A model generated the notes under the pieces. It searched no databases. It saw only the letters and a program-made list of their open reading frames with translations, and was not told the DNA's origin. From the UHGV virus genome UHGV-0304565: a stretch of 36,690 nucleotides of DNA; one strand, given 5' to 3'. Shown one piece after another: positions 2,176-22,681 of the stretch; the stretch's first letter is position 1, and each line of letters opens with the position of its first letter. Both the position numbers and the translations under genes were made by a program. The stretch is from a virus.

Positions 2176-2310
2176 CAGGGAAAAGGCTGCATCCCGCTAC
2201 AGAAACGGCTGGGTTGCCTTCGGGGAACGGCTGGAGGTTTTCAGGGAAACGGTCGAGTTGCCTGTGTGGATTTCGGGAAAAGGCTCGATGCCGGTTCAGG
2301 AACGGCGGCG
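2176..2310. repeat. Iteron-like array A: six copies of cAGGGAAAcGGCTg-type repeats
   Basis: Copies start at 2176, 2199, 2221, 2242, 2274, 2297 (spacings 23, 22, 21, 32, 23 bp), roughly two helical turns apart. Confidence 0.6.
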
Positions 2311-2667: not shown

Positions 2668-2997
2668 ATGTTTGCAAATATCGACATCAACCAAATCAAG
2701 AAATTAACTCAAAAAGAGTTTGATCAGTTTTATGAGTTAGAAGGTTGGTCTTCCACTCTGATTAATTCGCGGTGGGTGCTTGAGCTGATGACTCGTGATG
2801 ACGCACCTGCTTTGATGATTTGCGACATGGGTGAAGATGCTGACTTTATGGATATGAGCGAATTTTGTGTGGACACATACAACCGCAGCCAGAAGTACTA
2901 CTTCACATGCGATAGCGAGAATGACGTGATTTCTAAGGTCTATCTTCACCTTGTCCAGCATTGGGACGTTCAGGAGTTTCTTGAAGTATTCGCGTAA
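2668..2997 (+). CDS. Hypothetical strongly acidic early protein (109 aa)
   Basis: ORF track 2647..2997; ATG 2668 preferred (SD aagga 2655-2659, 8-nt spacing; ATG 2647 lies inside the palindrome). About 20 percent D+E. Confidence 0.55.
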   Translation: MFANIDINQIKKLTQKEFDQFYELEGWSSTLINSRWVLELMTRDDAPALMICDMGEDADFMDMSEFCVDTYNRSQKYYFTCDSENDVISKVYLHLVQHWDVQEFLEVFA

Positions 2998-3103
2998 CCT
3001 CAACCAAAGCCAGCATTGCTGGCTTAACTTCTCTGTGGCCGCAGGGAAGAACCTGCATATCGCTCATGCACCTGATCAATATGCTTTGTAGCCGTTTTCT
3101 TAC

Positions 3104-3139
3104 TGGTATTATTTACGCCATTGAGAAAACAAGTTGTTT
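3104..3139 (+). promoter_or_regulatory. Early promoter-operator module: extended -10 TGgTATTAT (3104-3112) plus palindrome AAAACAA-G-TTGTTT (3126-3139)
   Basis: Same -10-to-palindrome spacing as the other copies. Confidence 0.45.
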
Positions 3140-3150
3140 ACGGAGTTGTG

Positions 3151-3462
3151 ATGAAGAAATCATTGGTTCTTGGTCTGGACAAAGACCAGAAGAGAAAAGA
3201 GAAGCCTGCGCTGGTTGCTCAATTAACTTTGCTGGACATCGTTGCCAATGGAACCTCTATTCGTCTGTTCCGTGAAACAGCGGTGTCTTTCGATAAAAAC
3301 ACCTTTACTCGTTATGTAATGAATGTTCGTCGCCAGCGTGGAAAAGGCTGGGTGGCATTTCAAAGAATGTGGCCGGAACATCAGCTCGAACTGGCTTTGA
3401 TGGAAGTTAACCGCGTGGCCCAGCAAGAAATTCAGAGAGCATCAGTGATGGCAATAGCCTGA
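3151..3462 (+). CDS. Hypothetical early protein (103 aa)
   Basis: ORF track 3121..3462 starts on TTG inside the palindrome; ATG 3151 with SD acggag preferred. Confidence 0.5.
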   Translation: MKKSLVLGLDKDQKRKEKPALVAQLTLLDIVANGTSIRLFRETAVSFDKNTFTRYVMNVRRQRGKGWVAFQRMWPEHQLELALMEVNRVAQQEIQRASVMAIA

Positions 3463-3496
3463 TAATGTGCAAGTGGTAATTAGTCGACAGTACGAC

Positions 3497-3524
3497 AGCC
3501 CCGCCATCCTTACGGGGCTTTTTG
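3497..3524 (+). terminator. Intrinsic terminator
   Basis: Stem agccccg (3497-3503) / cggggct (3513-3519), 9-nt loop, T-run 3519-3523. Confidence 0.7.
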
Positions 3525-3587
3525 TATTGTAAGTACATACTTACGGTTATAAAATAGAAAAATAACCAAGACACTACGGAGAGTGAA

Positions 3588-3983
3588 ATGACCGTTAAAC
3601 GCGAAAAACTGACAGTTGATGTTTACTATGCCTCTGAAACCGCCGAAGGTAAGAATGTGGCAAAAATCACCGTTGTTACGTACAACACCGAAACTGGTGC
3701 CGAAGTCCAGGCCAGTACGATCGTGCGTAAAGGTGATGCCTCCGGCGGCGAGTACGCGACTCAATACCAGTCTATTTTCGATGCAACTGACCCGCTGCTG
3801 CTGAAAATCGAGAACTACTTCCGCCAGGTTGATGAAGAGGTGTTTGAAACCATGATGAATATGGTTAACACCGTATTCGCCTCCAGCCTGAATACCAACA
3901 CTACCTGGATTGGTCAGTACGGCCTGCGCATTACCTCCGGCATTCCTGCTGACACCTTAATCCCTGAAAGCGTATTCGCTTAA
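3588..3983 (+). CDS. Hypothetical early protein (131 aa)
   Basis: Strong SD ggagag 6 nt before ATG; flanked by terminators on both sides. Confidence 0.65.
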   Translation: MTVKREKLTVDVYYASETAEGKNVAKITVVTYNTETGAEVQASTIVRKGDASGGEYATQYQSIFDATDPLLLKIENYFRQVDEEVFETMMNMVNTVFASSLNTNTTWIGQYGLRITSGIPADTLIPESVFA

Positions 3984-3992
3984 TCCTCTTTA

Positions 3993-4020
3993 AATGGCGC
4001 GTAAACCGCGCCATTTTCTT
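3993..4020 (+). terminator. Intrinsic terminator
   Basis: Stem aatggcgcg (3993-4001) / cgcgccatt (4007-4015), loop taaac, then ttttctt. Confidence 0.7.
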
Positions 4021-4027
4021 ATGCCCG

Positions 4028-4042
4028 ATAACAATTTGTTTT
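4028..4042. promoter_or_regulatory. Palindromic element AtAACAA-T-TTGTTTT
   Basis: Family member upstream of the 4101 gene. Confidence 0.4.
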
Positions 4043-4100
4043 CTGCCTTATCTGATTTGTGAAAATGATTTCACTGAAGCAACTTAATAAGGAAACCATC

Positions 4101-4475
4101 ATGGGGCTTGATATCTACATCGAGACGCAGCCAAAAAACGATCTGAATAACGATACATCCAGAAAGCGGGTTGCTTACTTCCGTAAGTTCAATGCACTCG
4201 TTGGGTGGATGGAGCGCAACGTAGGTGAAGTCGAAAATTGTGAGCTTTTAGAATTAACGATGAATGACATTTGTCTTCTGAAAGCTCATTTGATGCACAT
4301 AAACGAAAGTAATTGCGAAGAGTACTTGCCTACCCGGGAAGGTTTTTTCTTCGGCAGTCAGGAGTACGATGAAGGTTACTGGCATGATGTGGGGGAGTTG
4401 AAAGAGCTTGTGGAAGATCTGATTAAGAACCACGACTTTCACAATAACAGACTGACCTTCTGCGCCTGGTGGTAA
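4101..4475 (+). CDS. Hypothetical early protein (124 aa)
   Basis: ORF track 4059..4475; ATG 4101 preferred (SD aagga 4090-4094, 6-nt spacing). Confidence 0.55.
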   Translation: MGLDIYIETQPKNDLNNDTSRKRVAYFRKFNALVGWMERNVGEVENCELLELTMNDICLLKAHLMHINESNCEEYLPTREGFFFGSQEYDEGYWHDVGELKELVEDLIKNHDFHNNRLTFCAWW

Positions 4476-4477
4476 AT

Positions 4478-4621
4478 ATGGGCGATTTCAAGAAACGCCT
4501 GAAGGAAAGAGCCGAGATGGTCAGAAAGCAAAACGCCTCTTCTGTCATCAGATACGCAAGGCAGTTTAGTCGCAACAACAAATCAGTTGAGGAAAAGATC
4601 CTTAGCGTAATCGGTCGATAA
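4478..4621 (+). CDS. Possible small protein (47 aa), absent from the ORF track
   Basis: ATG 2 nt after the previous stop; GGTGG 5 nt upstream; followed by hairpin aaggcca/tggcctt (4627-4650). Below the 60-aa track cutoff. Confidence 0.25.
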   Translation: MGDFKKRLKERAEMVRKQNASSVIRYARQFSRNNKSVEEKILSVIGR

Positions 4622-4682
4622 TTATTAAGGCCATCAGCATTGGTGGCCTTAAATGACCATCCTGTTTCCCGCAGGCTAAAAA

Positions 4683-4755
4683 CACCAACCTCTTACCTCC
4701 AGGCAACCGACAAACCCACCTGTTCCCGTCCGGCTACCGCAACTTTCCACTTTGA
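4683..4755. repeat. Copy B of the degenerate ~80-bp repeat
   Basis: See 1506-1590. Confidence 0.5.
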
Positions 4756-4805
4756 CGCCTTATTCGTACAACGATAATTAACACCAACAAGAAAACAATT
4801 TGTTA
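4752..4805 (+). promoter_or_regulatory. Early promoter-operator module: -35 TTGACG (4752-4757), -10 GATAAT (4773-4778), palindrome AAAACAA-T-TTGTTA (4792-4805)
   Basis: Hexamers and palindrome read directly; 15-nt spacer is suboptimal. Confidence 0.5.
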
Positions 4806-4825
4806 TTTACGATAAGGAATTAATC

Positions 4826-5308
4826 ATGAATTTTATCGCTACTGTAAACGCACCCGCACATGGCAATATCGCTGTAACGTTCTCTGACATTGAAAAACGA
4901 GTACTTGGTGCATGGCGCGACAATGAGACGGTAGAACTGTCAGCACAAGAAAAATGCATTATTGCACGCGACATCATTTGTAATTGTCGTTACTCGCGGG
5001 TAATTGAGAAAGCGTATGTGGTAAATTCTGGATTCGGAACGTTCGTCTTTCCGGTGCGCTCCGGGCGATTCTGCCAGTCCAAGCTGATTGAGTTCGCTAC
5101 GCAGATTTCTGTCTGGATTAAAACTCAATCGTCGTTCAAATTTTCCGACGATGAAGCATTATCGCAGGGGATGCGGATCGCCAACAATGCAATTAAATGC
5201 AAAAACATTACGTATACCGCTGGCGTTGATACATGGAAACTGTTTTGCGCTAACTTTATGCTGAATGTATACGCAAGCAACCGCATCCACATCCTTGATG
5301 GCGTGTAA
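4826..5308 (+). CDS. Hypothetical early protein (160 aa)
   Basis: SD aagga 7 nt before ATG; weak hairpin plus ttctct downstream (5319-5343). Confidence 0.6.
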   Translation: MNFIATVNAPAHGNIAVTFSDIEKRVLGAWRDNETVELSAQEKCIIARDIICNCRYSRVIEKAYVVNSGFGTFVFPVRSGRFCQSKLIEFATQISVWIKTQSSFKFSDDEALSQGMRIANNAIKCKNITYTAGVDTWKLFCANFMLNVYASNRIHILDGV

Positions 5309-5343
5309 CTGAGAAGAGGGCCAGAAACGGCCCTTTCTCTATA

Positions 5344-5475
5344 GCCACCAGCTGCCGCAGGGAAATTTTCAGAAACGGCGAGGAACGTATTCATGAGCCG
5401 ACGGGGAACGGCCAGGATTTTTTCGGGAAACGGCTGCATTCGCCTTTATATAGAAAAAACATCGGGAAGCTGGTG
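5344..5475. repeat. Iteron-like array B (GGGAAACGGC-type repeats) flanked by inverted Chi-like octamers
   Basis: Repeat copies at 5359, 5370, 5381, 5402, 5424, 5463 (11/22-bp phasing); CCACCAGC at 5344-5351 and GCTGGTGG at 5468-5475. Confidence 0.55.
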
Positions 5476-5845
5476 GAATCCAACCAGCGGTTGTCGGACA
5501 GGTGAGCGGGGAAAATTATGATGACTTTCGTCGCCTGAGACATCCAGATTTCTTTCGTAGCGTAATCACATACGTGATTAAGTGGTGTGATTATGTGAAA
5601 AATCACGCGCACATAATACGCGAGCGGATACGGAACAAAACAAAATGCCGATCCGCGCCGACAATTAAACGCGGATCACATAGCAAGAATAAAAGCCAAT
5701 GATTAACCATACACCATAACGCAATATAACGCGATTTAAGCGCGTTAATGCGCTAAGTAATGGGTATATACTGGTAAGGATATAAAAGCGCGTCTGTGGC
5801 GTTATTTTGGCGCTTATTTTATGTTGTTGGAGTGAGTTAAAGACA

Positions 5846-5873
5846 ATAAAAAACGCGCCAATGATGGCGCGTT
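5846..5873 (-). terminator. Intrinsic terminator (minus strand), first of a tandem pair
   Basis: Stem aacgcgcca / tggcgcgtt with loop atga; A-run on the plus strand 5846-5851 gives a U-run on the minus transcript. Confidence 0.6.
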
Positions 5874-5893
5874 ATGGTGGAAGTATTGGAAAC

Positions 5894-5918
5894 GAAAAAA
5901 GCGCCCATAGTGGGCGCT
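5894..5918 (-). terminator. Intrinsic terminator (minus strand, possibly bidirectional)
   Basis: Stem agcgccca / tgggcgct (5900-5918), loop tag, plus-strand A6 before and tttta shortly after; the same 19-mer recurs at 6396-6414. Confidence 0.6.
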
Positions 5919-5923
5919 CGATT

Positions 5924-6154
5924 TTATTTATGTAAACTGATTTCAAATCCCATTTCTACAAACGCTTTTAGCATTAAAAATATATCAGCGTCATTCACGT
6001 CTGCTTTTTTCCGCTCCTGGTCGCTCAATAAGTCAATTTTGCGCGTCGTTTCATCTATAAGCTCGACTGCGCGCCCAGCGTAACCAGCGATCCCAGCGAT
6101 GCGATTAACATAATATTCATTATGGACGTTAACGCCAGCGATAAGAACAAACAT
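5924..6154 (-). CDS. Hypothetical protein (76 aa)
   Basis: SD aaggag upstream on the minus strand; last gene before the tandem terminators. Confidence 0.55.
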   Translation of the reverse strand: MFVLIAGVNVHNEYYVNRIAGIAGYAGRAVELIDETTRKIDLLSDQERKKADVNDADIFLMLKAFVEMGFEISLHK

Positions 6155-6378: not shown

Positions 6379-6426
6379 TTTTAAAGCTCCTTTAAAGCGC
6401 CCATAGTGGGCGCTTGATTCCATTAA

Positions 6427-7077
6427 TTACGCTTTGAAAGCATCAGCTAAATAATTGTAGAAATCATTTTTAATGAAGCGATATTGCTGAGTACCAGCTT
6501 TCGCGCTCCCAGCTCCTTTGACTTTTTCAACAAGTCCGAGACGTTCGCAAAGATTGATCAACTGGTTGGCTTGAGTATAGCCAGCGTCCAATTTAATCTC
6601 GCACGCTTTTTTGGCTTCATTCATTAAATCGAAAACAGCGCCATTCGTGAACGTGTCGATCTCGTCGTTAATCATATCGATTAAAGCGAATACACGAGAT
6701 CCAGACATATCAGCGACGGAATAAACACACTTTCCAGCTTTAATGGATTTAACCAGATAAACCAGTTTTTCCAGTGAATAACTATTAGTCATAGCATCAC
6801 GGAAAAATACTTCTGGCGCTTGTTTGCTTGCTTTAATTGCATAGTAGAAAACAGAGCATAATTTTTCGTCTTCAACAGCGTTTACAACGTTGTTGATGAA
6901 GTAAGCAAGTTTAGTGGTTGCAGCTTGCATATTTGCTTTGTCTGCTTTAGTGTGCGTACCATTTTTATAATGTTCGTTATATGTTTGAGTTGCCAGATCT
7001 GCTTTTTCGCGCAGCTCGTCGGATACAATGGCAGCAGCTTCAATGATGGATTTTTTAGAAATGATAATGTTAGCCAT
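6427..7077 (-). CDS. Hypothetical protein (216 aa) with a helix-turn-helix-like C-terminal segment
   Basis: SD aagga 8 nt upstream; C-terminal YTQANQLINLCERLGLVEKVKG looks like a DNA-binding helix pair (pattern judgement only). Confidence 0.55.
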   Translation of the reverse strand: MANIIISKKSIIEAAAIVSDELREKADLATQTYNEHYKNGTHTKADKANMQAATTKLAYFINNVVNAVEDEKLCSVFYYAIKASKQAPEVFFRDAMTNSYSLEKLVYLVKSIKAGKCVYSVADMSGSRVFALIDMINDEIDTFTNGAVFDLMNEAKKACEIKLDAGYTQANQLINLCERLGLVEKVKGAGSAKAGTQQYRFIKNDFYNYLADAFKA

Positions 7078-7374: not shown

Positions 7375-7896
7375 TTAAAACGGAAGGATTCGTTCAACCC
7401 AATCGAAGAAAATAAGTATTTTTCTACCGTCTTCCAACTTAAGTGTGACTAGACAGGCGTCAACGCCATCTGACGTTCCCTCAATTTCGCGACCGTCTGC
7501 CATGTAGACCCTTATAGATTTGCCGTTTTGGTAAGCCTGACGACATATCTTAAAAAAGTCACGACGTGATGGCTGATTAACCATCTGTTCATTGTTTAGC
7601 GTTAGTCGACCTGTGAATGAAGTGTCAACCTCTTCTATGCCCGACTCAATTGTGCTAATGCGCTCAAGAGGGAGCCTTATACGATTTGTGTTGCTAAGCG
7701 GATCTGGTGTGAGGTTCAGCTTATTTCTTGCGCTCAATAGCCCGTAGACATACATGCAAAACACTTGGCCGTCTTCGAGAGTGACTCTTACAGGAAATTT
7801 TGCACTCCGCCAGAAGAGCAAGGTGCGCTCAGCATGTTCGTAGTCTCGCGGCCAGACTTCAGCCGGTATGCCGTAGGTGATGTCCAATGTTCTCAT
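7375..7896 (-). CDS. Hypothetical protein (173 aa)
   Basis: Start overlaps the stop of the upstream gene (ATGA); hairpin aataaccgg/ccggttatt downstream at 7338-7365. Confidence 0.55.
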   Translation of the reverse strand: MRTLDITYGIPAEVWPRDYEHAERTLLFWRSAKFPVRVTLEDGQVFCMYVYGLLSARNKLNLTPDPLSNTNRIRLPLERISTIESGIEEVDTSFTGRLTLNNEQMVNQPSRRDFFKICRQAYQNGKSIRVYMADGREIEGTSDGVDACLVTLKLEDGRKILIFFDWVERILPF

Positions 7897-10552: not shown

Positions 10553-10572
10553 ATAAGTAAGTGATTACTTAG
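10553..10572. promoter_or_regulatory. ATAAGTAA-family motif with inverted repeat (AGTAA-gtga-TTACT) in the divergent intergenic region
   Basis: Read directly; adjacent TATAAT at 10548-10553. Confidence 0.4.
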
Positions 10573-10589
10573 TGGATTGTAGCAATAAA

Positions 10590-11270
10590 ATGGATGTAAA
10601 AATCACGATTTTGCAGGTTGATGTTGTCAACCTTCGCCCGAATACCTGGAACACCAATTCGGTTGGTGCGCAGAATTTTGAAAAACTGAAAGGTTCTATC
10701 GAAAAATTGGGCTTTTTTAAGCCAATTTTGGCTCGTGAACTTGAAGATGGATTTTTTGAAATCCTCGGCGGCGAACATCGCTGGCGTGCTGCTATTGAGC
10801 AAGGAATTTCAACGGTTCCGGTGCTTTCTGTGGGCAAAATTAGCGATGTCGTGGCAAAACAGATGTCACTGGTGGACAACGAGCGATACGGTGAAGACGA
10901 CCAAATCGCATTGCAACGCTTCATTGAAGAAATTCAGTCAGAACTTGACTATCAACTGTCTGAAATCGCCCCGTATGACGACGAAATCTCGATGGTTTTA
11001 GCAAAAGAGGCGGCAATCGACCTTGAAGCACTGGAGGCGTTGTCTCGTGGTAGTGATGAGCCTGTCGATACCGACAAACGAGAGAAAACCGAACGTGTGG
11101 GTGCGGAACATCAGACCATGCGCTTCAAAGTAACTTTCGATGCGTCAGATCGTGTTGCAGAAACCATAAAAAACATCATCAAAGAGCAGGCTATTAACAC
11201 CGGTAATGAAATGGAGAACGCTGGTGAGGCTCTGGTGTGGCTGGTCGACTACTACAAGGAGCGTATGTAA
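10590..11270 (+). CDS. ParB/Srx-like N-terminal domain protein 1
   Basis: ILGGEHRWRAA resembles the ParB GERRxRA box. ORF track starts at GTG 10572; start uncertain. Confidence 0.6.
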   Translation: MDVKITILQVDVVNLRPNTWNTNSVGAQNFEKLKGSIEKLGFFKPILARELEDGFFEILGGEHRWRAAIEQGISTVPVLSVGKISDVVAKQMSLVDNERYGEDDQIALQRFIEEIQSELDYQLSEIAPYDDEISMVLAKEAAIDLEALEALSRGSDEPVDTDKREKTERVGAEHQTMRFKVTFDASDRVAETIKNIIKEQAINTGNEMENAGEALVWLVDYYKERM

Positions 11271-11938
11271 TGACCAAAAAGTTTGAAATCGTATATCGCG
11301 ACCCGGCAGATCTTATTCCCTATGAGATGAATGCCAAAAAGCATGATGAACAGCAGATCCGAGATCTGGCCGCAGCCATTAAAAAGCGCGGATTTGACCA
11401 GCCAATTACGGTCGATAAGAACGACGTAATTATTACTGGCCACGGCCGCCGTGAGGCTGCAATTTTTGCTGGACTTGAGCGCGTACCGGTTATTGTTCGC
11501 GATGATCTCAGTGATGACGAGGTTCGTGCGAAGCGCCTTGAAGATAACCGACTTGCCAGCATTGATTACGATGCAATTAAGCTACAGAAAGAGCTTGAGT
11601 CGCTTGTTCTGGACGATATCGAGGTTTTCGGCTTTGAAGAGCGTGAGTTGAATGTTCTCGTTGGCAGTATGACAGAAGAAATGGACACCGACTCGCTAGT
11701 TATCGATCTTGGCGAAGAAACTAAACGACAGAAGGATGAACACACCGAGATCAGTCGTGAAGTTGCAGCGGAAGAAGTACGTGTTGTCGACGTATTGGGC
11801 TTTAAAACGCTCCCTGCTGGCTCTGCCATTGTTGTTGGTGATTTGCTTGCCCATATGGAAGAAATGACGGGAGAAAGCGGGGTAGACGCATTTGTGGCAT
11901 ATGCGGAGAAGATCTCTTCCGGGGAGATGGCTGCATGA
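11270..11938 (+). CDS. ParB/Srx-like domain protein 2
   Basis: ITGHGRREAA motif; ATG overlaps the previous stop (TAATG); SD aaggag 9 nt upstream. Confidence 0.6.
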   Translation: MTKKFEIVYRDPADLIPYEMNAKKHDEQQIRDLAAAIKKRGFDQPITVDKNDVIITGHGRREAAIFAGLERVPVIVRDDLSDDEVRAKRLEDNRLASIDYDAIKLQKELESLVLDDIEVFGFEERELNVLVGSMTEEMDTDSLVIDLGEETKRQKDEHTEISREVAAEEVRVVDVLGFKTLPAGSAIVVGDLLAHMEEMTGESGVDAFVAYAEKISSGEMAA

Positions 11939-12573
11939 GCAAATACATCATCAACGTATCGTTTCAGACACGCGTAAATAAAACCACGCGCACGTTGGAA
12001 ATCGCTGAGTCGTTCGGGCTTGGCCTGGACGAAAAAGAGTGGACGCTTTACGACAATCTGGAGCTGGAAGTGAAGCAGGGCGATGTGGTGTACATCACCG
12101 GCCAATCCGGTTCCGGCAAATCCGTTGTGCTGCGCGAGTTGCAACGACAGATGAAGGATGAAGGGCTGTCTGTAGCCTCCATCGATGATTTTACCTTCGA
12201 TAATGAGGTTAACGTCATCGATCAGTTGGGCAAAACGACCAGTGATGCGCTTGGGTTGTTATCTATGGCTGGTCTGAACGATGCATATCTGTTTGTTCGC
12301 AAGCCTTCTGAAATGTCAGACGGCCAGAAATATCGTCTCAAGATTGCCAAACTGATTGAGTCAGGCGCTAAAGTATGGGCTGCTGACGAGTTCGGCGCTG
12401 TTCTAGACCGTGTAACCGCTCAGGTTGTGGCGTCTAACCTCCAGCGTGCCGCTCGAAAGGTTGGTGCGACGGTAATGGTGGCGACGACTCACGAAGACCT
12501 GAAGAACGCGCTGCGCCCGGATATGCAGATCACCAAGCACTACAAAGAACGCGTGAAGGTGGAATATGCCTGA
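11935..12573 (+). CDS. ABC-type ATPase (minimal nucleotide-binding domain, 212 aa)
   Basis: Walker A GQSGSGKS, signature-like SDGQKYRL, Walker B VWAADEF, H-loop ATTHED; ATGA overlap with the upstream gene. Confidence 0.7.
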   Translation: MSKYIINVSFQTRVNKTTRTLEIAESFGLGLDEKEWTLYDNLELEVKQGDVVYITGQSGSGKSVVLRELQRQMKDEGLSVASIDDFTFDNEVNVIDQLGKTTSDALGLLSMAGLNDAYLFVRKPSEMSDGQKYRLKIAKLIESGAKVWAADEFGAVLDRVTAQVVASNLQRAARKVGATVMVATTHEDLKNALRPDMQITKHYKERVKVEYA

Positions 12574-12820
12574 TTTGAAGATCGTAGAGCTGAAGCCATC
12601 GAAAGAGACTGATAACAACAACGTGGAAGTCATCCGCCTGCTGGAAGAAGCACTTCAGCACGCCAGAGAAGGAAAAAGCCAGAGCCTGGCGCTGTTGATG
12701 ATCAACAACGACGGCAGTGTTCTTGATTGCTGGCATAACGGCGGGCGCCCGTATGTCATGGTAGGGGCGATGGAGTCTCTTCGCCTGGATTTCATCAATG
12801 CCAATATCGAGCGCAGGTGA
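12566..12820 (+). CDS. Hypothetical protein (84 aa)
   Basis: Overlaps the ATPase stop; SD aaggtgg upstream. Confidence 0.55.
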   Translation: MPDLKIVELKPSKETDNNNVEVIRLLEEALQHAREGKSQSLALLMINNDGSVLDCWHNGGRPYVMVGAMESLRLDFINANIERR

Positions 12821-12825
12821 TCGAC

Positions 12826-13716
12826 ATGGCAGATATCATCATCAAACGCTACCGCCCTGAAGAGTTTCCGCGTCATCTGGACTTTCTGGAGCGAATGACT
12901 GTCACAAAGGGAACTGTAGAGGACTGGCACGCTCTTAAGTCGCTTCACTACAAAACAGACGGCAAACCTTTCGCGCCAACATACTATCGCTGCGAACTGG
13001 ATGACCGTCTGGTGGGCGTCGTGGTTATGGCTTACCCGAAACTTCTGCTGGCACCTCGCCATCGCATGTTTCCTAAGTTGAAACCAACCACCAATACCAC
13101 CGTGGCTAACCAGTACTGGGGCCGGTACGTGAATAACAACTTTGCGGTGATCAGCCGCTCAGTTGTGGATACTCAGTACCGTGGCGTAGGCGTCTCTTAT
13201 CGAATGATTAACCTGGTTAGCAGGATGCATGACCGGCCAATCATTGAGATCCAGTCATCGATGAGCAAATACAATCCCTTCGCCATGAAAGCAGGGTTTA
13301 AGTTCATCCGCCCTGAGCGACCGAAGAGCTATGAAAGTGCACTGCGTGTGTTCCAGCGCCATTTCCGCTCCGACCCGGGTGATAACGAGGCGATCGTCAA
13401 AGAGTTGTTCGCTATGAGCGAGTCTCGTCGTCGCCGTGCACTGCGTGATCTGGTGGCGGACTACCACAAAAACAGTTCCCTGGCAAAAGCTGGGCGGAAT
13501 CGTGGCACGACGATTCAGGACATTGCCGACAGTCTGGTGGACGAGGCCAGCATTGTGAAGCTGCTCAAGGACATTCACAACCTGAGCTTTACGTCTCCGT
13601 TGTATGGTGTGTATCGAAACCCTGACTTTGGTCGTCGACTGCCTGACACGCTGCCACTGCTGGCATTCGACAAACAACCTTTGGATAAACCGTTAGAAAT
13701 TGCTTTACCGGCATAA
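12826..13716 (+). CDS. GNAT-like acyltransferase-fold protein with C-terminal extension
   Basis: GNAT motif A-like QYRGVGVSYRMINLV and motif B-like NPFAMKAGFKF. ORF track starts at GTG 12817 overlapping the previous stop; ATG 12826 used. Confidence 0.5.
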   Translation: MADIIIKRYRPEEFPRHLDFLERMTVTKGTVEDWHALKSLHYKTDGKPFAPTYYRCELDDRLVGVVVMAYPKLLLAPRHRMFPKLKPTTNTTVANQYWGRYVNNNFAVISRSVVDTQYRGVGVSYRMINLVSRMHDRPIIEIQSSMSKYNPFAMKAGFKFIRPERPKSYESALRVFQRHFRSDPGDNEAIVKELFAMSESRRRRALRDLVADYHKNSSLAKAGRNRGTTIQDIADSLVDEASIVKLLKDIHNLSFTSPLYGVYRNPDFGRRLPDTLPLLAFDKQPLDKPLEIALPA

Positions 13717-13725
13717 GGATTTGCC

Positions 13726-13992
13726 ATGACGTTAACCGATAAACAAAAGGACATCATCAAAACGCTCAATCTCGGTTATGAGCGAGGTCATCTACTTGAC
13801 CTGGACGAATTGCTTGAAGTTTTGCCGTACAAGACAACCAAGCAAAGTATCCAGTTCTCAATTCGCGCTCTGATAAAAAAGGGGCTGGTGGAGAAAGGGC
13901 ATACGCGCCAACGCAGTGACAATCGCTATCACCGCCGAACTCTTGGGTTAACTACTTTAGGTCGAGCCAAAGCGAAGTTACTGGTGATGTAA
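13726..13992 (+). CDS. Small basic protein (88 aa), possible winged-helix DNA-binding regulator
   Basis: SD aagga 7 nt upstream; segment SIQFSIRALIKKGLVEKG resembles MarR/PadR-type recognition helices (pattern judgement). Confidence 0.45.
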   Translation: MTLTDKQKDIIKTLNLGYERGHLLDLDELLEVLPYKTTKQSIQFSIRALIKKGLVEKGHTRQRSDNRYHRRTLGLTTLGRAKAKLLVM

Positions 13993-19560: not shown

Positions 19561-20481
19561 ATGCCAGAACAAAAGATGAAGATTACGGAAGAGGCATTTT
19601 CGGATTTTACGGGGCATATGTGCCGCGCCGGATTTACCAATTCTATCTCCGATGAACCTTTAACCGAGCGGCAACAAAGTCAGCTATCTGCTTGTTTGCA
19701 GGCGGTTCCCCTCTCCCAATCCGTAAACATAACCCCGGCTTCACCGTCAGTTTTGGTTGGGAAAACTGTTCAACTTAGTGCAGGTATTAGTATGGGTAAG
19801 AGTGCCAGTTCATTCACCTGGAAGTCAGCGAATGATCAAATTGCAACCGTTAACGGCACTGGATTAGTAACTGGTGTAGCACCAGGCAAAGTAAAAATTA
19901 CTGCAACTGATCAGGAAACCCAGCTTTCCGCGTCAGTGGAAGTCACCGTAAATCCGGTAGCCGTTCAATCCGTAACGGTAACGCCAGACTCAACCTCTGT
20001 TGAGAAAGGGAAATCAGTCAGTCTGAAAGCGAATGTTCAGCCGTCAAATGCGACGAATAAGGCTGTTACCTGGTCTTCAAAAAATGAAGATAAGGCAACG
20101 GTAGACCAGAGCGGGAACGTTACTGGTGTAGAAGTTGGCACTGCGACGATTGAGATCGTTTCCCAAGATGGCAGCAAAAAGGCAACTGCAACGGTGGAAG
20201 TAACTGCGCCTGTTGTGGCTGTTACCGCCGTCGAAATCGACCCAAATAGCACAACCGTTGAGGCAAACAAAACTGTTCAGCTGACCGCAAATGTCGAGCC
20301 GGCAGGAGCCACAAATAAAACCGTTACTTGGGAATCCAAAAATACCGAGTTTGCAACGATTGACAGCGAAACCGGTGTTGTAACTGGTGTTGCGGCTGGT
20401 ACTGCCACAATCGAGGTTACTACCCAAGATGGTAGCCACAAAGCGACAGCAACTGTAGAAGTTACTGCCGCACAGGAATAA
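19561..20481 (+). CDS. Ig-like (Big_2-type) domain protein with three tandem domains; probable capsid decoration protein
   Basis: Three repeats of the pattern V.V.P...V..G.T.QL.A.V.P..AT...VTW.S.N...ATV...G.VTGV..G.ATI....QDGS.KAT..VEVT. Confidence 0.65.
   Translation: MPEQKMKITEEAFSDFTGHMCRAGFTNSISDEPLTERQQSQLSACLQAVPLSQSVNITPASPSVLVGKTVQLSAGISMGKSASSFTWKSANDQIATVNGTGLVTGVAPGKVKITATDQETQLSASVEVTVNPVAVQSVTVTPDSTSVEKGKSVSLKANVQPSNATNKAVTWSSKNEDKATVDQSGNVTGVEVGTATIEIVSQDGSKKATATVEVTAPVVAVTAVEIDPNSTTVEANKTVQLTANVEPAGATNKTVTWESKNTEFATIDSETGVVTGVAAGTATIEVTTQDGSHKATATVEVTAAQE
19951..20466 (+). repeat. Intragenic tandem duplication (two ~258-bp Ig-domain units)
   Basis: Protein repeats 2 and 3 are also similar at nucleotide level. 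Confidence 0.5.
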
Positions 20482-20525
20482 CCGATATTGGGCGGCTTTC
20501 GCCGCCCAAGTGGAGAGAAAGCGTT

Positions 20526-20960
20526 ATGAAACCAGCAAAAATTGTTTTATTAGAACCGCAATTTTCCGGTTATTCGGGAATGTTGTGCGGCGTTCAGTTC
20601 GAGAACGGGGTGTCCGTAGCGGAGTTGCCTTTTATCGATCAGCAAAGGATTTGTGCCTCAATGCGAGCATCAACAGTCGAGGGCAAAAATGTTTCTCCGT
20701 CTGCCGCATACAGTGATCGTGGCGAGTTGGCCGCAGACCTGATTACCGAGCCAGCAGCACCTGACATTGTGCCAATGAAACGTGGGACACCAGATGAACC
20801 GGCCAAACAGATCCAGACTTTCACACGAGAAGAGTTGGAGTCAATTGCAGACAATGAAGGCATTGCCGGTCTACGTGTGATTGGTAATCAGGTTGGTGTC
20901 AAAGCGAAAGGAATTGTCGAGATGATTGAAGGCATCCTGAAAGCACAAGGCGGTGAGTAA
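20526..20960 (+). CDS. Hypothetical virion/head-tail protein (144 aa)
   Basis: GC hairpin 20488-20510 then SD ggagag; located within the structural module. Confidence 0.5.
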   Translation: MKPAKIVLLEPQFSGYSGMLCGVQFENGVSVAELPFIDQQRICASMRASTVEGKNVSPSAAYSDRGELAADLITEPAAPDIVPMKRGTPDEPAKQIQTFTREELESIADNEGIAGLRVIGNQVGVKAKGIVEMIEGILKAQGGE

Positions 20961-21793
20961 TGGCGCAGATCGACTCGTATCGTAGCGGTGAAGCTGTTTC
21001 CCTTTCATTTGCCTTCAACGTGCTGGATATCGAATCTGCTACCTACACAGTAAAGGACAGCACCGGGGCTATTCTCGTTGATGGCGAGCCGCTAGAAATT
21101 ACCAGCGGTCAAATGTCGATTCCGGTTGTCGTGTCGGCTGAATATAACCAGCTTTCTGAGAAAGAACGCGATCTGCGGTACGTCATTGTGAAGGCTGTTG
21201 CATCGGGTCTGACGCATGAAGAGCGGCAAATGTATGTTCTGCTGAATAGTTTTGAACTGTCGATACCAGAACAGTCGTTTGCAACTGTCGCTGATGCTCA
21301 AATGCAGGCGATCGATATGCTGAATGGGGACACTTTGCTGTCGGATGGTGAAGGCTTAATGCGCAAGCGTCTCATTGAGGCTACCAGACGAATTAAAACT
21401 TTACCGTTCTCAATCCGCAAAATTCTACGTATCGACTTTGACCGATACGATCGCCCTCAAAATATGCTGAATGTGTATGACATTCCGTGGGGAGCAGATG
21501 GAGCGTACCGGCATGATTTAGTCGATTGGGAAAAGATGACGCAGGAGAAGTTTGAAGAGTTCCCTGACTACTTCAAAGAAGCGTTGATGCTTGCCGTTGT
21601 CAACGAAGCGTGTGAGATCGCAAATGGCAATGATGTAGCCGCAGCACGAGAGGATGGCATTTTGTCAGAGTCCATCGGTGAAACAACCAACATGTACCGT
21701 ACCGGTAAAGCTGCAAACGTGCATGTGGCTCGTAGTACCTGGCGCTTGCTGGTCAGTTACATCAACAACCGTATGATTGTTCGCCGTGCGTAA
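20960..21793 (+). CDS. Hypothetical structural protein (277 aa)
   Basis: ATG overlaps the upstream stop; located within the structural module. Confidence 0.5.
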   Translation: MAQIDSYRSGEAVSLSFAFNVLDIESATYTVKDSTGAILVDGEPLEITSGQMSIPVVVSAEYNQLSEKERDLRYVIVKAVASGLTHEERQMYVLLNSFELSIPEQSFATVADAQMQAIDMLNGDTLLSDGEGLMRKRLIEATRRIKTLPFSIRKILRIDFDRYDRPQNMLNVYDIPWGADGAYRHDLVDWEKMTQEKFEEFPDYFKEALMLAVVNEACEIANGNDVAAAREDGILSESIGETTNMYRTGKAANVHVARSTWRLLVSYINNRMIVRRA

Positions 21794-21872
21794 CGCCAGT
21801 CGCATTATTTACTTTTGGTCTAAAGGGTTTTTGGCCAGTAATGAGAGCGACCGACAACAACAGGGAGAGAGC

Positions 21873-22217
21873 ATGAATATTTCATGGCAAACAGAAATTG
21901 CGATCTACCGCTTTGGCGCAAAGAACGTTTACGGTGAGGCGCAATTACAATTCGTCAGGAAGACGAATGTCGGCGTGGTTAAGTTCGAACAGAGTAATGA
22001 GAAATCGTCAGTTCGTGCTGATAGCTCTGGTAGTCGTGGTAAGGCGAGTCTGGAGCTGTTTGATGCTGTGTTAGTTGTCCCTTTGGAAGCGGCTGTACAA
22101 CTTGATGATGTACTGATCCTTGAAGGTCAAAAATTAAAGGTGTCCAGTGTTCATCGCCGCTGGGGGCTACGAGGAAGACCTGGGCATCTTGAAGTAGGGG
22201 CGAATATATGGGTCTGA
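21873..22217 (+). CDS. Hypothetical head-tail joining protein (114 aa)
   Basis: ORF track 21777..22217; ATG 21873 with SD gggagag preferred. Confidence 0.45.
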   Translation: MNISWQTEIAIYRFGAKNVYGEAQLQFVRKTNVGVVKFEQSNEKSSVRADSSGSRGKASLELFDAVLVVPLEAAVQLDDVLILEGQKLKVSSVHRRWGLRGRPGHLEVGANIWV

Positions 22218-22681
22218 AATACGATGCGCATCAGTTCAAACGTGCGGGGAATCGACTCAACAACAGCCAGAAAGCATTTAAGCGATATCTTATTCGGGAC
22301 ATGGAAAAGCTGGCGCGTTTGGTTGAGCGTCTCAGCCGTGCAATGGCCCCGCTGGAAACCGGATCTCTGGAGACAGCCATCTTTGCCAGGGTGATTAAAG
22401 AAGGTTATTCAGGGCTGCGTATTGAGCTTTCTGTGTCTGGAGCAAAACCACGTCAGGGGCATCCGGGCGTAGAAGTAGGTGACTATGCTAAGTACATGGA
22501 GCTGGGTAAATACCGACTCGGTTATCTTTCTCGAATGAAGAACGTGACAAACCCACCAATTGCCGGTGTTAAACCCCGTGTTGGGCCACACTTTCTGGAA
22601 AGAGCGGTGGAAATTAGCGAGAAGCAGTTCTCAGAAGCGATTCTTGAGGCTGCCAGAAAAGCCGGATTTACGAGAGGTTAA
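22208..22681 (+). CDS. HK97 gp10-like tail completion/head-tail adaptor protein (putative)
   Basis: Motif PLETGSLETAI resembles the D/ETGxLRxSI signature of that family; position upstream of the major tail gene. Confidence 0.45.
   Translation: MGLKYDAHQFKRAGNRLNNSQKAFKRYLIRDMEKLARLVERLSRAMAPLETGSLETAIFARVIKEGYSGLRIELSVSGAKPRQGHPGVEVGDYAKYMELGKYRLGYLSRMKNVTNPPIAGVKPRVGPHFLERAVEISEKQFSEAILEAARKAGFTRG

Follow-up and report, generated by a model that had tools for sequence, protein, structure and literature searches.

A conserved pair of phased direct-repeat arrays around an early operon of SSU5-type phage-plasmids

Repeat array A and its conservation

This report concerns a series of short direct repeats at positions 2176-2310 of the UHGV virus genome UHGV-0304565, which was analysed as a stretch of 36,690 nucleotides (the window, here always at its full length; the strand given is the + strand); we refer to these repeats as array A. 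Terminase, portal, tape-measure and tail genes make up the right two thirds of the window. In the region 1100-2700, which contains the array, identity is 96-97% with Escherichia phage Cyrano (the pLF82 phage-plasmid) and with 'phage CMS-2020a', and 91-92% with PhiR41_1. For Cyrano in strain LF82, a 39-fold induction with ciprofloxacin is reported (PMC9928086). A more sensitive search, for which 2050-2660 served as the query, also retrieved SSU5, several Klebsiella phage-plasmids and 796 plasmids of PLSDB, nearly all of them about 100-115 kb in size and non-mobilizable; their hosts are Klebsiella, Escherichia, Enterobacter, Yersinia, Salmonella, Citrobacter and Cronobacter. Based on the relatives found with these two regions, the window is assigned by sequence to a phage-plasmid of the SSU5/pHCM2/pLF82/pMT1 type. 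One relative used throughout, pECOH89, is 112 kb long, carries a CTX-M-type resistance gene and encodes its own DnaE, DnaB-like helicase and primase.

Array A is located in a 1.57-kb gap that is poor in open reading frames (ORFs), at 1096-2667, between ORF 697-1095 and a gene starting at 2668. It consists of six copies of one motif, all on the + strand, whose cores ([A/G]AA[A/C]GG) are found at 2181, 2203, 2225, 2247, 2278 and 2300, with core-to-core spacings of 22, 22, 22, 31 and 22 bp; depending on the context, we describe its sites by the core GGRAAMGG, by the extended consensus CAGGGAAACGGCTG or by the short motif GGGAAACGG. The six phased direct repeats claimed in a preliminary description of this DNA are thereby borne out, and the copy coordinates given there were right to within 1-2 bp. 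With up to three mismatches allowed, CAGGGAAACGGCTG matches the array at 2176, 2198, 2220 and 2242, in exact steps of 22 bp, and two weaker copies lie at 2273 and 2295; the window as a whole has 11 such matches against 2.8 expected, a number that was reached in none of 100 shuffles. A cluster of six same-strand cores within 135 bp did not occur in any of 300 composition-preserving block shuffles either (mean 2.6, maximum 5). Expressed in helical turns, the steps of the array are two, two, two, three and two, which places the sites no more than about a third of a turn from one another around the duplex. Tandem Repeats Finder did not report the array, because its 22-bp units have only about ten conserved bases in common.

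The individual copies differ in strength. Copy 1 (CAGGGAAAAGGCTG, 2176-2189) has one mismatch to the consensus, and its core positions are 67-100% identical over nine lineages. Copy 2 (TACAGAAACGGCTG, 2198-2211) is absent from phage PhiR41_1, where one entire repeat unit of about 22 nt is missing from the array. Copy 3 (TCGGGGAACGGCTG, 2220-2233) together with copy 4 (CAGGGAAACGGTCG, 2242-2255) makes up a 31-bp stretch, GGRAAMGGCTGGAGGTTTTCAGGGAAACGG, that is near-invariant across lineages; copy 4 is the best conserved of all, with nine of its ten core positions identical in all nine lineages. Copy 5 (TCGGGAAAAGGCTC, 2273-2286) follows 31 bp beyond copy 4, and copy 6 (TTCAGGAACGGCGG, 2295-2308) is the weakest.

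The complete 22-22-22-31-22 pattern, including its 31-bp step, recurs identically in SSU5 and in Enterobacter pCY-CTX, at an overall identity of only about 70%. Klebsiella relatives have a spacing of 43-22-22 (with motif variants that include TGGAAACGG and GTGAAAGGG), and Cronobacter has a minimal 22-22 version. Over the nine lineages, the motif cores are on average more similar to the window than are the spacers (0.79 vs 0.58 identical; Mann-Whitney p = 2e-5). Sites better conserved than spacers, spacing by whole turns and a single orientation are the features expected of operator or architectural arrays, and array A has all of them. Since motif, orientation and spacing are kept at about 70% identity, with cores above spacers, we read this as the signature of putative binding sites that are under selection and constrained in their geometry.

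We found no description of this array or region in the literature on iterons, origins and repeats in SSU5, pHCM2 and pMT1; a preprint on heteroresistance was set aside as not relevant, as it concerns a different phage-plasmid family. Two pattern scans of public collections, with GGCTGG-N10-GGAAACGG on viral contigs and GGGAAACGG-N13-GGGAAACGG on genome contigs, were both too unspecific, almost all matches being chance or unrelated; seven true SSU5-like loci were among them.

The preliminary description had placed the array between a terminator and the promoter of the 2668 gene, and both landmarks are confirmed. The array begins 63 bp 3' of an intrinsic-terminator-like hairpin on the + strand (2086-2113, GGAGG..CCTCC followed by a T run), which was found in a terminator scan and ends an A+C-rich segment described below. 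The hairpin has a folding energy of -17.9 kcal/mol (z = -3.4), counterparts in Cronobacter (z = -3.9), Klebsiella and pLAO18, and a loop, TCGC, that is invariant in the alignment of relatives. Between terminator and array lies a conserved leader (2114-2175, +) with invariant alignment columns, composed of a short AT-rich stretch CGTATTTATTCAA..GATTTTAT, the invariant CCCCCGTAA and then CAGCCTTCGG. On the other side, the flank 3' of the array has a G+C content of 0.56-0.60, and the promoter/operator block of the 2668 gene (2590-2660, +; invariant TTATTGCGATAATAAC at 2617, then CCAACAAGAAAACAnnTTGTTT) follows about 290 bp downstream. This block is part of the downstream gene and not of array A.

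Array B and the sequences around the bracketed operon

A second array of the same motif, which we call array B, is located at 5320-5436, again on the + strand. Its cores at 5325, 5373, 5406 and 5428 are spaced by 48, 33 and 22 bp, and the last pair reads GGGGAACGGCCAGGATTTTTTCGGGAAACGGCTG. Mean column identity across array B is 81% among E. coli, Salmonella SSU5, Cronobacter and Y. pestis pMT1, and in every one of these lineages the final two copies are 22 bp apart. In the 112 kb of pECOH89, arrays A and B are the only two clusters of the motif: at up to one mismatch there are 11 hits, of which six fall in the arrays, and the other five compare with a chance level of 5.1. The preliminary description missed array B; with the latter, the picture of a single array becomes that of a pair bracketing an operon. 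The two arrays have the same orientation, each lies directly 3' of a + strand intrinsic terminator, and between them they flank the six-gene small-ORF operon 2668-5308 on both sides.

The terminator at array B (5319-5341, +), a hairpin GGGCCAGAAACGGCCC followed by TTTCTCT, marks the end of this operon. It folds with -17.7 kcal/mol (z = -3.7), and its stem shows compensatory changes, reading GGGCC/GGCCC in the window vs GGGGC/GCCCC in SSU5 and pMT1; copy 1 of array B sits within the loop and the 3' arm of this same hairpin. In pMT1, array A has been lost through a rearrangement associated with an insertion sequence, with array B and a 483-nt gene being kept. Immediately 5' of array B, in every lineage, is the gene for a 160-aa protein (4826-5308, +) that is restricted to SSU5-type elements. 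Its AlphaFold model has a pLDDT of 89.4 and no significant neighbour in the PDB, and the predicted structure may represent a new fold.

Beyond array B there is a further ORF-free region of 0.5 kb (5436-5935), 76% identical out to pMT1. Several palindromes (AATCACATACGTGATT; GATCCGCG..CGCGGATC), a GGGTAATGGGTAT(A/G)TAC box and, on the minus strand, two strong terminators are found in it, and it could contain the gene of a small RNA or some further cis element. A terminator cassette of 34 bp (AAAGCGCCCATAGTGGGCGCT..), nearly identical in its two copies at 5898-5931 and 6394-6427, follows each of two consecutive transcription units on the minus strand. Chi (GCTGGTGG) has 10 occurrences in the 36.7 kb, where 0.75 would be expected, including the copies at 2499 (-), 5345 (-) and 5469 (+): two copies in opposite orientation flank array B, and one family-conserved copy lies between array A and the 2668 promoter.

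On the other side of the locus, the sequence 5' of array A is dominated by an A+C-rich, G+T-poor segment on the + strand (1226-2050), with a GC skew of about -0.5 and an AT skew of about +0.5. The segment is 0.8 kb long and has the terminator 2086-2113 as its 3' end; at its 5' side are a promoter-like block at 1229 and a TTGACG-N17-TTATAC element at 1306-1334 that is conserved in Cronobacter. It contains four + strand copies of a GCCATTACCC-type motif (1496, 1630, 1743 and 1833), the reverse complement of which, GGGTAATGGC, is identical to the array motif GGGAAACGGC except at two positions. Both the skew and the minus-strand GGGTAATGGC motif, the latter with three occurrences, are present in every relative examined, and the GCCATTACCC/GGGTAATGGC copies may be a related set of sites in opposite orientation to the array motif. 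ORF 1226-1582, inside the segment, has no family match. The segment could represent a non-coding RNA that is G-poor and unstructured, or else a large insulator of the Rho-loading (rut-like) type, and probably forms one module with the terminator and array A.

The same segment contains three tandem repeats of about 30 bp (28-31 bp, CCAACCTCTT..N..CAGGCTACCG) at 1506-1600. These repeats are found again at 4650-4745, inside the intergenic region 4622-4825 and just 5' of a promoter, and also in the Cronobacter gap. A shared promoter/leader block, TAACnCCAACAAGAAAACAAnTTGTT, which includes the palindrome GAAAACAAnTTGTTTTC, precedes each small + strand gene; the blocks at 69-147, 1229-1249, 2629-2654, 3111-3144, 4013-4046 and 4777-4810 look like a set of dispersed operators, and a similar promoter shape (TTGnnn-N17-TAATnn) is located 5' of the minus-strand gene for a 216-aa protein. 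We take these neighbouring promoter blocks (TTATTGCGATAATAAC; GAAAACAAnTTGTTTTC) to resemble dispersed operators in the style of P1 C1; the likeness concerns the surrounding blocks, whose motif is different from that of the GGGAAACGG arrays.

Coding, RNA, origin and centromere readings

The array was originally described as non-coding, with the overlapping ORF 2017-2433 probably spurious unless it should turn out to be a conserved protein, and comparison with relatives does not turn it into one. We give almost no credence to the idea that this ORF (138 aa) is a real gene and that the repeats stem from a repetitive protein sequence. The window has no stop in this frame, SSU5, pCY-CTX and C. freundii have one + frame without stops across the array, the submitters of Cyrano annotated a coding sequence (CDS) here (CYRAN_104), and there are 31 database matches; these, however, are ORF calls of ragged extent (77-174 aa, 36-100% coverage), all of them in close relatives. 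Moreover, all three + frames are stopped across array A in five of nine relatives, divergence by codon position is 0.36, 0.35 and 0.29 and hence lacks a third-position excess, and besides the deletion of copy 2 (about 22 nt) in PhiR41_1, the region has further indels whose length is not divisible by three. The ORF has no match among PHROG or Pfam families, and the RefSeq-derived gene tables of four plasmids have no CDS at the locus. By sequence comparison the ORF is spurious, and we have rejected it as a gene. A role of the repeats in RNA, where read-through transcripts would offer tandem single-stranded GGGAAACGG sites to an RNA-binding protein, seems to us very unlikely, even though every copy lies on the transcribed (+) strand of the flanking genes. 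A conceivable partner in such a scheme is a full-length FljA-family protein encoded 5 kb away (7375-7896, -; Pfam Flag1_repress, 'repressor of phase-1 flagellin', E = 1.4e-68), which is conserved in pMT1 and SSU5; its Salmonella namesake, FljA, is reported to block translation of fliC mRNA (PMC2652032), and an 11-nt sequence, GAGCCGACGGG, is common to array B and the E. coli fliC 5' leader. Against this, the 11-mer is limited to the E. coli lineage (others read GAACCGAAGGG) and may be due to chance, and both arrays lie 3' of intrinsic terminators and would therefore be transcribed only by read-through. The array also lacks the marks of a structured non-coding RNA: Rfam has no match to it at gathering or relaxed thresholds (best relaxed hit 19.8 bits vs a gathering score of 40.2 bits), and folding of 2114-2345 on both strands and of 2320-2600 gave no excess stability (z = -0.02, +1.09 and +1.55). 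Strict spacing by whole helical turns is, finally, more natural for duplex DNA.

The FljA-family protein and the 11-mer shared by array B and the fliC leader raise the separate question of whether the element represses host flagellin. As the 11-mer is confined to the E. coli lineage, we regard this likeness as a lead only.

Origin iterons or cooperative regulator sites were the two functions originally proposed for the array. The latter remain the best reading, but iterons in the sense of a plasmid origin do not hold up. Array A does have the same-orientation tandem repeats of about 17-22 bp with 22-bp phasing that are typical of iteron origins; however, such repeats are the sites of the replicon's own initiator and lie beside its gene, whereas the RepB-family initiator (RepA) gene of pECOH89 is located at 101-1315, about 35 kb from the array, and is flanked by 15 copies of an iteron, GTATGCTGTCAGCGGTAAT, that is unrelated to GGGAAACGG. 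An adjacent AT-rich unwinding element and a DnaA box are missing as well: there is no DnaA box (TTATCCACA, up to one mismatch) in 1000-2700 or 5300-6000, and of the ten 40-mers richest in A+T within the first 8 kb, none is next to array A or B. GATC occurs only twice in the 1.57-kb gap and does not cluster beside the arrays. The cumulative GC skew of pECOH89 is monotonic, with no inflection at the array, but is uninformative on origins because gene orientation dominates the profile. We have therefore rejected array A as the origin of the plasmid replicon, given its own initiator some 35 kb away with unrelated iterons and the lack of a DnaA box or unwinding element. The pECOH89 repA region itself (99-1854) has a P1-like layout, with about five iterons upstream and about ten downstream of the RepB-family gene; the annotated repA start codon (101) is probably wrong, since it falls inside the first iteron cluster.

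A different possibility, which we consider unlikely, is that besides the RepA origin there is a second origin, of the phage (lytic) type, in which the array is the part that binds the initiator; the phased repeats would then be occupied by a phage initiator, which would load the DnaB-like helicase, primase and DnaE of the element. What speaks positively for such an origin is the repeat geometry, as 22-bp phasing with five to six copies is classical for iterons, and the unusual setting, a conserved ORF-free region of 1.5 kb with strong strand asymmetry and several repeat families. The element has replisome genes of its own (dnaE, DnaB-like helicase, primase), we found no mapped lytic origin in the phage-plasmid literature, and at the syntenic position of a distant Acinetobacter relative there is an ORF-free gap that is rich in repeats. 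On the other hand, the search for origin signals described above was just as negative for a lytic origin (DnaA boxes, adjoining AT-rich 40-mers, GATC, skew inflection), the 3' flank of array A is G+C-rich rather than AT-rich as in origins of the lambda O/ori type, and no recognised initiator-like family is found among the neighbouring ORFs, nor an initiator-like gene beside either array. Furthermore, the motif occurs in two arrays 3 kb apart, and array B is kept in pMT1, an element mainly regarded as a plasmid in the literature on phage-plasmids. It is also quite unlikely, in our view, that the arrays are centromere-like partition sites, used either by the ParB-N-domain proteins encoded at 10572-11938 or by the small partner of a ParA-like ATPase. 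Direct-repeat arrays are typical of type Ib, II and III centromeres, and two ParB_N proteins are encoded 5-8 kb away and are 86% identical in pMT1, which also keeps array B; at the ParA-like locus of pECOH89 (33.5-34.6 kb, MipZ/ParA family, with a 117-aa partner), moreover, there is no obvious repeat array that could serve instead. We take the array motif GGGAAAC to resemble a half-site of ParB/Noc palindromes. Yet a centromere of this kind lies immediately beside its par operon, and arrays A and B adjoin neither par-like locus, the ParA-like one being about 43 kb off. There is no 16-bp palindrome of the parS type, only pseudo-palindromes of T-tract and motif with variable centres of 1-3 nt, and the ParB-N genes lie with an ABC ATPase just 5' of terminase, in Acinetobacter as well.

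Two observations on the Acinetobacter relatives may be added. In A. baumannii p5769, the ORF-free, repeat-rich gap at the comparable position (12507-13858) has different repeats (TATAGAAATGTAGAAAC.., three to five copies at a spacing of 62-67 bp); this suggests that a non-coding locus rich in repeats goes back to the ancestor of the wider group. The module of two ParB-N-domain proteins and the ABC-type ATPase (10572-12573 of the window), between a divergent DEAD-box helicase and terminase, is syntenic in A. baumannii phage-plasmids (19986-22558 of p5769) at 36% identity, and its place just upstream of terminase suggests a late or packaging role for the ParB-N proteins.

A proposed regulatory array pair and its meaning for the family

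Array A is an element of a familiar kind, namely iteron- or operator-like phased direct repeats, for which we found no earlier description in SSU5-type elements; its paired arrangement after terminators is unusual. The best explanation of the data is that it is a conserved cis-acting DNA element of SSU5-type phage-plasmids that works as a pair with array B. From its repeats, phasing and conservation, array A is probably a protein-binding DNA array. For the specific role of the arrays we suggest, tentatively and at somewhat less than even chances, that they are regulatory or insulating operators of the early small-gene operon. Six asymmetric sites in one orientation, two turns apart with a single three-turn step, would let a protein bind cooperatively along roughly one face of the duplex, and we infer that a DNA-binding protein encoded by the phage-plasmid coats both arrays. 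The resulting complexes could act as operators or insulators, as roadblocks that reinforce the terminators, and/or a looped complex between A and B might determine how the early operon between them is expressed in the plasmid (lysogenic) state. We favour an insulating or operator-like role because one operon has an array on either side, each directly after a terminator and hundreds of bp from the nearest promoter, with intervening DNA that tolerates insertions.

Several points weigh against this proposal. The promoter closest to array A is about 290 bp away, with insertions in between in SSU5 and C. freundii, so that the array is not a classical promoter-overlapping operator; array B faces a convergent operon and not a promoter. 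The 22-bp spacing is equally typical of origin iterons. Candidate binders are the FljA-family regulator, the 216-aa protein (6427-7077, -) and the two ParB-N proteins, but the promoter regions of the candidate regulators have no copy of the motif and so give no clue from autoregulation. The 216-aa protein has no match in PDB, NCBIfam or Pfam, and the 160-aa protein beside array B, although confidently modelled, matches no DNA-binding fold.

Comparison with known systems shows what the arrays share with each and where they depart from it. The iterons of theta-replicating plasmids and phage-plasmids (P1 RepA oriR/incA, F RepE, pSC101, R6K; Rep_3/RepB) likewise combine same-orientation repeats, a conserved core, a variable spacer, 22-bp spacing and five to six copies, and we take the presence of a second array of the same site elsewhere on the replicon to be similar to the incA/handcuffing arrays of P1. 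They differ in their initiator context, as the SSU5-type RepB initiator has its own GTATGCTGTCAGCGGTAAT iterons (15 copies) about 35 kb away, and the array has neither a rep gene nor a DnaA box or AT-rich unwinding element beside it. The sites of the small phage regulators P2 Cox and 186 Apl also comprise one asymmetric motif in one orientation at two loci, where they serve a regulatory or architectural purpose, and are bound cooperatively, as we would predict for arrays A and B; however, they follow one another at about one helical turn and overlap a promoter or attP, whereas arrays A and B have steps of two turns and lie just after terminators, hundreds of bp from promoters. We identified no Cox- or Apl-like gene. 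The centromeres of R1 (parC/ParR), pSK41, TP228 (parH/ParG) and pBtoxis (tubC/TubR) are short clusters of direct repeats as well, sometimes two of them, which nucleate a wrapped or filamentous complex; unlike arrays A and B, they are located immediately beside their par operon.

A broader reading of the locus, which we think unlikely, would combine the whole 1.57-kb ORF-free gap, with its G-poor and possibly transcribed 0.8-kb segment, the terminator and the phased array in that order, and array B into a new replication/maintenance control locus of SSU5-type phage-plasmids that uses a new site-specific protein. Such a locus could be a lytic origin, or a switch coupling maintenance in the plasmid state to lytic replication.

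SSU5-type phage-plasmids are widespread in Enterobacteriaceae and include S. Typhi pHCM2, Y. pestis pMT1 and many carriers of CTX-M-type genes such as pECOH89, while their cis-acting control elements are essentially undescribed. For the annotation of these elements, our analysis means that the repeats are not the plasmid origin and that the overlapping ORF (CYRAN_104 in Cyrano) is not a gene. The conserved pair of arrays around an early operon offers a testable entry to early-gene regulation in this family, and possibly to replication or segregation. Should the locus indeed prove to control replication and maintenance, it would provide a family-wide handle on copy number and induction, since it is shared by pHCM2, pMT1 and hundreds of resistance-carrying Klebsiella and E. 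coli plasmids.

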